Of a stretch of DNA of 64,000 nucleotides, positions 23,702 to 23,746 are shown one piece after another. Source of the stretch: Octopus vulgaris (Eukaryota); NCBI GenBank assembly GCA_951406725.2, contig OX597825.1, forward strand, positions 60,202,001-60,266,000, given 5' to 3'. The notes under the pieces were generated by a model, which saw nothing but the letters and a program-made list of their open reading frames with translations, was not told where the DNA came from and searched no databases. Both the position numbers and the translations under genes were made by a program. Every line of letters starts with the position of its first letter. Position 1 is the first letter of the stretch.

Positions 23702-23746
23702 GGACCACTGATGCGGTCACAGGAGTGTGACGAAAGAACTTTGGCC
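23702..23746 (+). ncRNA. Hammerhead-like motif in the pLTR of the intact PLE (mirror copy 19611-19655, -)
   Basis: ggacca-CTGATGC-G-GTCAC aggagt GTGAC-GAAA-gaac-TT-tggcc. Confidence 0.6.

Follow-up and report, generated by a model that had tools for sequence, protein, structure and literature searches.

With moderate confidence, two short motifs in a 64,000-nucleotide stretch of Octopus vulgaris DNA (the window) are read as minimal type I hammerheads in which an extra G between position 9 and stem II, together with a four-base palindromic insert in helix III, constitutes a variant at the level of a whole clade of Penelope-like elements (PLEs), predicted to self-cleave as a dimer and probably weakened in the octopus family itself. 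The first, motif 1 (23702..23746, + strand), lies at the 3' end of a PLE, and the second is motif 2 (28481..28524, - strand); both were delineated by descriptor scan and folding. Stem I of motif 1 (23702-23707 with 23742-23746) is followed by C3 (23708) and G8 (23713), which pair, by a C at position 9 (23714) and by the extra G (23715) between 9 and 10.1, after which come stem II (23716-23731, 6 bp by the scan), G12 (23732), the helix III insert GAAC (23736-23739), U16.1 (23740) and U17 (23741), with the cut predicted after 23741. Its core begins 533 nt past the stop of the reverse transcriptase (RT)-endonuclease ORF and is sense to it. Motif 2 has G3 (28520), C8 (28515), A9 (28514) and the extra G (28513), a 5-bp stem II, GAAA, the palindromic insert AUAU, UU and a 4-bp stem I, with a fold z of -2.43; having G3-C8, A9, the extra G and a palindromic insert, it is in full agreement with the clade pattern.

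An earlier note on this DNA had reported one G between position 9 and stem II in both motifs, and its letters and coordinates proved correct. Both motifs show the three-way type I layout, with a closing stem I, a stem II hairpin and a 15.1-16.1 pair, and both contain U4-G5-A6, G12-A13-A14, a Watson-Crick 3-8 pair, a base other than G at position 17, and one extra base between 9 and 10.1 followed by G10.1-C11.1. The A expected at position 9 is found in motif 2 and in eight of nine related lineages, and is C in motif 1; the extra base, given as A, C or U in the published PLE consensus (over 80%), is G in all 11 motifs aligned here. Two other resemblances had been stressed: GUC at the start of stem II is indeed present in both motifs but is not diagnostic, occurring in 3 of the 11 motifs and in 7 of 56 published rows (PMC4209133), and the UU ending falls away as a shared trait, 23741 reading C instead of U in 65, 89, 91 and 93% of depth in the four sequencing runs compared, so that the family ends in UC. 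The GUC and UU common to the two motifs are incidental.

A scan of both strands that left position 9 free and allowed 0-2 extra bases returned motif 1 (23708 +), its copy in an inverted arm (19649 -), motif 2 (28520 -) and one further match, poor and A+T-rich. The note had staked its proposal on enrichment over shuffled controls; its pattern matched the window three times (motif 1, the arm copy at core 19649, motif 2) and gave 0 matches in 200 of 200 dinucleotide shuffles made block-wise in 1-kb blocks, which bears the enrichment out, and a relaxed descriptor gave 4 window matches vs a shuffle mean of 0.395 and maximum of 3. Both descriptors were written with the motifs in view, and their matches therefore prove that the motifs are unusual, not by how much. 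No Rfam hammerhead family was matched at E up to 10 in 251-nt windows around motif 1 and motif 2, nor was a hammerhead found among the 150 listed of 335 Rfam matches over the whole window.

The element carrying motif 1 has an ORF of 941 aa (20350..23175, + strand; ORF list, domain and relative searches) encoding an RT and, C-terminal to it, a GIY-YIG endonuclease, with a long RT3-RT4 insert and a short Cys linker. Its closest relative is an O. vulgaris protein, 99% identical; the RVT_1 domain match is weak, and GIY-YIG was matched in relatives, with the window ORF's endonuclease resembling that of neighbouring PLEs. With a single ORF for RT and C-terminal GIY-YIG and with inverted or partial-tandem ends, the element is of the endonuclease-bearing PLE type. 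The 3' untranslated end with motif 1 (23176..23860, +) runs into a (TA)n tract, and self-comparison of the window revealed an inverted 5' arm (19296..20349, -), a copy of the element's 3' end (23007-24052) that includes a copy of motif 1 (19611..19655, -). The arms (876 vs 875 nt) are alike except for the lengths of homopolymers and the edge of the microsatellite, and therefore represent one insertion event and a single observation of C9. The argument that C9 in both arms speaks against decay thus loses its doubling, and it is from the allele shares given below that C9 appears to predate the insertion. Since the ORF start coincides with the junction of the inversion (20349/20350) and the window copy lacks a sense 5' repeat, this copy is probably 5'-truncated; what had been called an intact PLE is intact from RT to endonuclease, but its ORF begins at the junction. 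Inverted 5'-truncated copies are a described outcome of PLE insertion (PMC8557442, partial text). Additionally, a short self-inverted piece in (TA)n at 1045-1186 matches the final 110 nt of the motif 1 element, downstream of the hammerhead, at 94% and constitutes a minimal inverted insertion of the motif 1 family.

The metazoan PLE hammerheads of Cervera and de la Pena (2014; PMC4209133), whose 56-row alignment was counted by hand, make the architecture far less odd than the note had claimed, because the extra base is already their published consensus. One extra base between 9 and 10.1 is their hallmark (54 of 56 rows), and the consensus also includes G10.1-C11.1 and a palindromic 15.2-16.2. 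These hammerheads resemble motif 1 in their place in the 3' repeat and in their type I layout; they resemble both motifs in the extra base, G10.1-C11.1, short stem I and long stem II, the clade motifs in a palindromic helix III that implies dimers and in 3-8 covariation (U3-A8), and the window element in that a 5'-truncated element bears a second hammerhead on its opposite strand. They differ in that the extra base is A, U or C in 53 of 54 rows (A 30, U 12, C 11), the single G accompanying a 2-nt insert, and none of the 56 rows has G with a 4-nt insert, C9, G3-C8 or A3-U8. Motif 1 departs from their consensus further, its insert not being palindromic. A 4-nt palindromic insert between A15.1 and U16.1 is shared by PLE hammerheads of Drosophila, Oikopleura, rotifer and shrimp (9 of 56 rows; Fig. 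S3 of PMC4209133), where the added base is C or A, or there is none, and G does not occur. An added base by itself is therefore not new, and it is the combination of the letter G with a 4-nt insert that is absent from the 56 published rows.

Outside that collection, the CChMVd (+) viroid hammerhead likewise has one extra base (A10) between A9 and G10.1, in a viroid ribozyme with loop-loop contacts; changing A10 to G was strongly detrimental there, whereas the clade conserves G, and this argues against good activity of the extra-G variant (PMC3705267, partial text). The Poseidon hammerhead PAc of Anolis carolinensis, also a PLE hammerhead, comes from a different PLE clade and was protein-assisted in vitro; its engineered C3G/G8C change partly restores cleavage, matching the natural G3-C8 of motif 2 (PMC11167929, partial text), and in an excerpt of PMC9901934 a G3:C8 swap rescues a model hammerhead also. 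The short-stem-III PLE variants of Lunse, Weinberg and Breaker (cited in the portion of PMC6765202 consulted) are by their title small, PLE-associated and dimer-cleaving. In the literature searched, no description was found of an extra-G PLE subtype, a natural C9 or A9C kinetics, and Lunse et al. may contain extra-G or C9 members.

The clade-level nature of the extra G was revealed by related elements. A profile built from 45 RT relatives led to 79 fetched loci (from the best 80 of 102 confirmed stretches), of which the 20 with a match reaching the C-terminus were examined; three with 106 nt or less of 3' DNA were set aside and the near-identical L018, L019, L020 and L022 were counted once, leaving 14 lineages whose 3' DNA extends for 150 nt or more. 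With a hammerhead descriptor that neither required an extra base nor fixed its letter, allowed inserts of 0-8 nt and was written after inspecting an earlier result, 12 of the 20 loci were found to have a motif 114-317 nt past the C-terminal match. These represent 9 of the 14 lineages (L001-L005, L008, L014, the L018 group and L025); the other five (L006, L010, L032, L034 and L040) gave no motif, with a decayed hammerhead trace in L040, and the opposite strand of the relatives' 3' DNA gave 0 matches in 10,596 nt. The extra G occurs in all nine lineages with a detected hammerhead, as does a helix III insert that forms a perfect 4-nt palindrome, at 30-46% RT identity to the window element; as the relatives share descent, these are not nine independent events. 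The proposal of a distinct hammerhead subtype is supported as a clade-wide variant (9/9 related lineages vs G in 1 of 54 published rows), but not on the grounds first given for it, the extra base being metazoan PLE consensus and GUC and UU being incidental.

Position 9 is A in eight of the nine relatives, the exception being L002, represented by one assembled sequence whose ORF match is broken; here C9 occurs with U3-A8 and a perfect palindrome. The motif ends in UU in five relatives and UA in three, and L001 swaps the 15.1-16.1 pair, a swap reported to be active but slower (PMC3088659, partial text). In the near-identical L018 (4014-4056), L019, L020 and L022, A replaces the catalytic G12, and judging by this substitution their hammerhead is probably a dead ribozyme. 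Across the 11 aligned motifs (the window's two and nine relatives), 93.2% of cells pair and 7 of 8 pairs change on both sides, vs only 28-47% pairing in slid controls; the structure was derived from the same 11 sequences, and gap-free columns alone were scored. Pair 3-8 is C-G in four motifs, U-A in four, A-U in two and G-C in one, stem I covaries too, U4-G5-A6 is invariant, and no G occurs at 17. Palindromic inserts are found in motif 2 and in all nine relatives, and the GAAC of motif 1, with its central A-A mismatch, is the sole insert among the 11 that is not a perfect palindrome. A covariance model of the 11 motifs matched only its training set, near-identical copies, a second L004 copy and, weakly, L040; its alignment misplaces part of stem II, which makes it a weak test.

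Two further features of the relatives' 3' DNA were observed. In 5 of 10 clade members the word TGCGT (window 23812-23816; L002-L005) lies 26-97 nt past the predicted cut and, from its position, could be a promoter or RT-start signal. L004 has an identical 99-nt repeat at both contig ends (1-99 and 3411-3509) with the hammerhead inside, either a true terminal repeat or an assembler overlap of a tandem unit.

In a quick tree, the RTs of the clade form one group on a long branch from four outgroup rows (L079 was excluded as too short), within which the window element, L001 and L002 branch in no settled order. The RT3-RT4 spacing is 126-131 aa in 44 of 45 aligned proteins vs 55-69 aa in 5 outgroup loci; this spacing, about twice that of the outgroup, was noted in the window ORF, A1, L001-L005, L008 and L025, and the clade's RT fingers insert exceeds that of other C-terminal-endonuclease elements by about 70 aa. 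L079, an outgroup locus with short RT3-RT4 spacing, has a classical extra A and a 2-nt insert. By eye, against the rows of Fig. S2 of PMC8557442, the short Cys linker before GIY-YIG is Nematis-like, and the window RT clade departs from Nematis in having a long RT3-RT4 insert; in the available portion of that source, such inserts belong to N-terminal-endonuclease clades and some Coprina, with C-terminal ones lacking them. The RT clade that combines a long RT3-RT4 insert with a C-terminal endonuclease may be an unnamed PLE clade, a comparison made by descriptions only.

Other copies of motif 1 could be followed in sequencing runs. The stretch was found in 20 of 24 listed runs, with no RNA dataset listed among those containing it, which has no bearing on expression, and allele shares over 23590-23850 were taken from the contigs of four runs with four organism codes (1,477 to 8,678 contigs per run). 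Each share is weighted by depth across short contigs whose likeness to the window copy is 80% or more, with rare variants dropped and alleles unphased; contig selection by likeness favours the window copy's own allele, and summed depth does not equal copy number. At 23714 (position 9), A replaces C in 18, 28, 16 and 13% of depth, leaving C9 at 72-87%. A loop 2 variant at 23723 has a share of 4-11%, and variants at 23731 and 23746 reach at most 3.5%. The extra G (23715) shows no other letter at 2% or more in any of the four runs, and neither U4-G5-A6, G12-A13-A14 nor the GAAC insert has a variant at or above that level among the copies. Because C9 is the majority allele across copies, it is a family trait and not private decay, with an A9 allele coexisting. 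Absence from other copies of the element, which the note had named as fatal to its proposal, was thus not what was seen, the extra G being invariant at the 2% cut-off.

In the hammerhead core, A9 pairs with G12 and helps bind metal. The octopus family departs from its clade twice, in C9 and in the broken palindrome, and the simplest reading is relaxed selection on cleavage; by these letters, the ribozyme of motif 1 is probably weakened in the octopus family. A different reading, which we regard as unlikely, holds C9 to be a natural variant of the core that works fully, the extra G partly assuming the stacking or metal role of A9 and so freeing position 9. It draws on the occurrence of C9 followed by G in two lineages, the window element and L002, which the RT tree separates by 1.53 changes per site and which have different 3-8 pairs, on the invariance of the extra G while position 9 is polymorphic among copies, on a predicted C9-G12 mispairing of only 0.08, and on the UC, not UU, that ends most copies; the perfect palindrome and U3-A8 of L002 also suggest that C9 may be tolerated rather than harmful. 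Against it, A9 is kept by eight of nine relatives and by all 56 published rows, though the descriptor used there required it (PMC4209133), the C9 of L002, with its broken ORF match, may itself be decay, and the motif 1 family has broken its palindrome too, which looks like relaxation. The broader claim to which this would lead is equally doubtful: an unnamed PLE clade with its own hammerhead subtype, in which the base of stem II is rebuilt by the extra G, position 9 is free to vary, and C9 still cleaves. If it were true, C9, which lies outside every consensus compared, would dominate a very abundant octopus family and recur in a distant lineage.

The preferred reading, a clade-level variant that cleaves as a dimer and is weakened in the octopus family, is consistent with folding. 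The 15.1-16.1 pair has a probability of 0.00 in the monomer in 10 of 10 motifs, and the six-base palindrome from 15.1 to 16.1 pairs with itself in 9 of 10 (-0.2 to -5.1 kcal/mol), the exception being motif 1, whose hexamer self-duplex is at +1.4 kcal/mol with its central A-A. As the monomer never closes 15.1-16.1 and the palindromes self-pair, we infer a dimer that shares helix III. In a tandem transcript, two hammerheads would pair their six-base palindromes into this shared helix III, and the dimer would cut after N17, perhaps helped by the element's protein. In PLE hammerheads with a short helix III, cleavage is weak and takes place in dimers (PMC4209133; PMC6765202, partial text), and from its sequence motif 1 most likely works like such a dimer-dependent hammerhead. 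One step further, the extra G may have been kept because it is able to slip into a pair with C11.1, which would restore a normal core with A9 next to a G:C pair and shift the bulge one position higher in stem II; in nearest-neighbour folding, a model that ignores core stacking, this slipped register has a probability of 0.00-0.04 vs 0.63-1.00. In the octopus family, A9 would mostly have changed to C and the palindrome centre to A-A, both likely lowering cleavage, which would not have stopped the motif 1 family from spreading. PLE clades without hammerheads likewise attain high copy number, according to the part of PMC8557442 consulted. C9-G12 mispairing was separately considered as an off switch and rejected, with a predicted probability of just 0.06-0.08.

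It is rather improbable that the motifs are a non-catalytic fold preserved so that the element's reverse transcriptase can bind or be positioned there, as the note had also suggested. For motif 1 the idea has some appeal, since its family, which the reads cover very deeply, is nearly fixed for C9 and the broken palindrome, and PMC4209133 leaves open functions beyond cleavage. In the lizard PLE, moreover, insertion in vitro was independent of hammerhead catalysis, catalytic mutants not impairing it, and cleavage needed protein; its reverse transcription, on the other hand, begins in a distinct AC-rich stem-loop that lies downstream of the hammerhead (PMC11167929, partial text). The clade as a whole covaries in catalytic geometry, with 3-8, 15.1-16.1 and the dimer palindrome changing as catalysis requires, no G at 17 and an invariant U4-G5-A6, so that a non-catalytic fold has room solely in the C9 majority of the motif 1 family. 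Least probable, and very unlikely, is that these are ordinary PLE hammerheads whose shared G is a frozen ancestral letter without function and whose likeness is coincidental: the relatives are kin, motif 2 is unlinked, and the extra base, G10.1-C11.1 and the 4-nt insert have each been published (54, nearly all and 9 of 56 rows, with one G row), but G has persisted over 30-46% RT identity while positions 3, 7 and 8, the stems and the palindrome turned over, and no published row joins G with a 4-nt insert.

Whether PLE hammerheads are required for retrotransposition or are mere passengers is posed as an open question in the consulted parts of PMC8557442 and PMC11167929. The motif 1 family offers a natural A9/C9 allele pair in one background, in which copy age and number can be compared with cleavage, and the conserved G occupies a place at which G was harmful in viroid mutagenesis, allowing a direct test of how a core insertion is tolerated. 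Of the 11 aligned motifs, 7 would escape a descriptor that demands A9 or C3-G8, and counts of animal hammerheads are therefore likely too low for this clade.

Motif 2 lies about 1 kb behind another PLE ORF, of an element at about 29530-31050 (-). It is unlikely to be the hammerhead of that element, which has its own decayed hammerhead remnant behind it (about 29375-29410, -, core 29404), with a (TA)n tract between. This remnant has a U3-A8 core and a damaged stem II, and shares a CCGG insert and UA site with a third hammerhead-like motif (about 15345-15392, -, core 15382) behind a PLE fragment at 16081-16803 (-); in the latter, U3-A8 and a 4-bp stem II accompany the palindromic CCGG insert and UA site, and G5 is lost or changed. 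No second copy of motif 2 appeared in the window self-comparison, no convincing coding remnant adjoins it, and searches of viral contigs and phages with its flank gave no match; nor was a viral-contig RT relative of the PLE ORF found. A 22-aa tblastn match next to motif 2 (E 0.004 among 120 queries) was put down to chance, its place misfitting an ORF end.

A weak candidate for a further decayed hammerhead lies at about 55683-55730 (+), behind a broken PLE at about 53570-55420 (+); it has an apparent extra G, and its positions 3 and 8 are unpaired. Among other repeats, the window contains an ORF fragment of 509 aa (59909-61438, -), labelled by eye as what we take to be a LINE-type RT fragment, and two short ORF fragments (34255-34764, - and 52679-53110, -) that are presumably transposase-like by the same kind of label. 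Additionally, a dispersed repeat of about 200 nt, probably SINE-like, has many copies in the window (371-598, 6597-6811, 7160-7358, 24224-25129, 26270-26880, 41930-45198 and 62758-62975) and is in tandem at 26270-26880.
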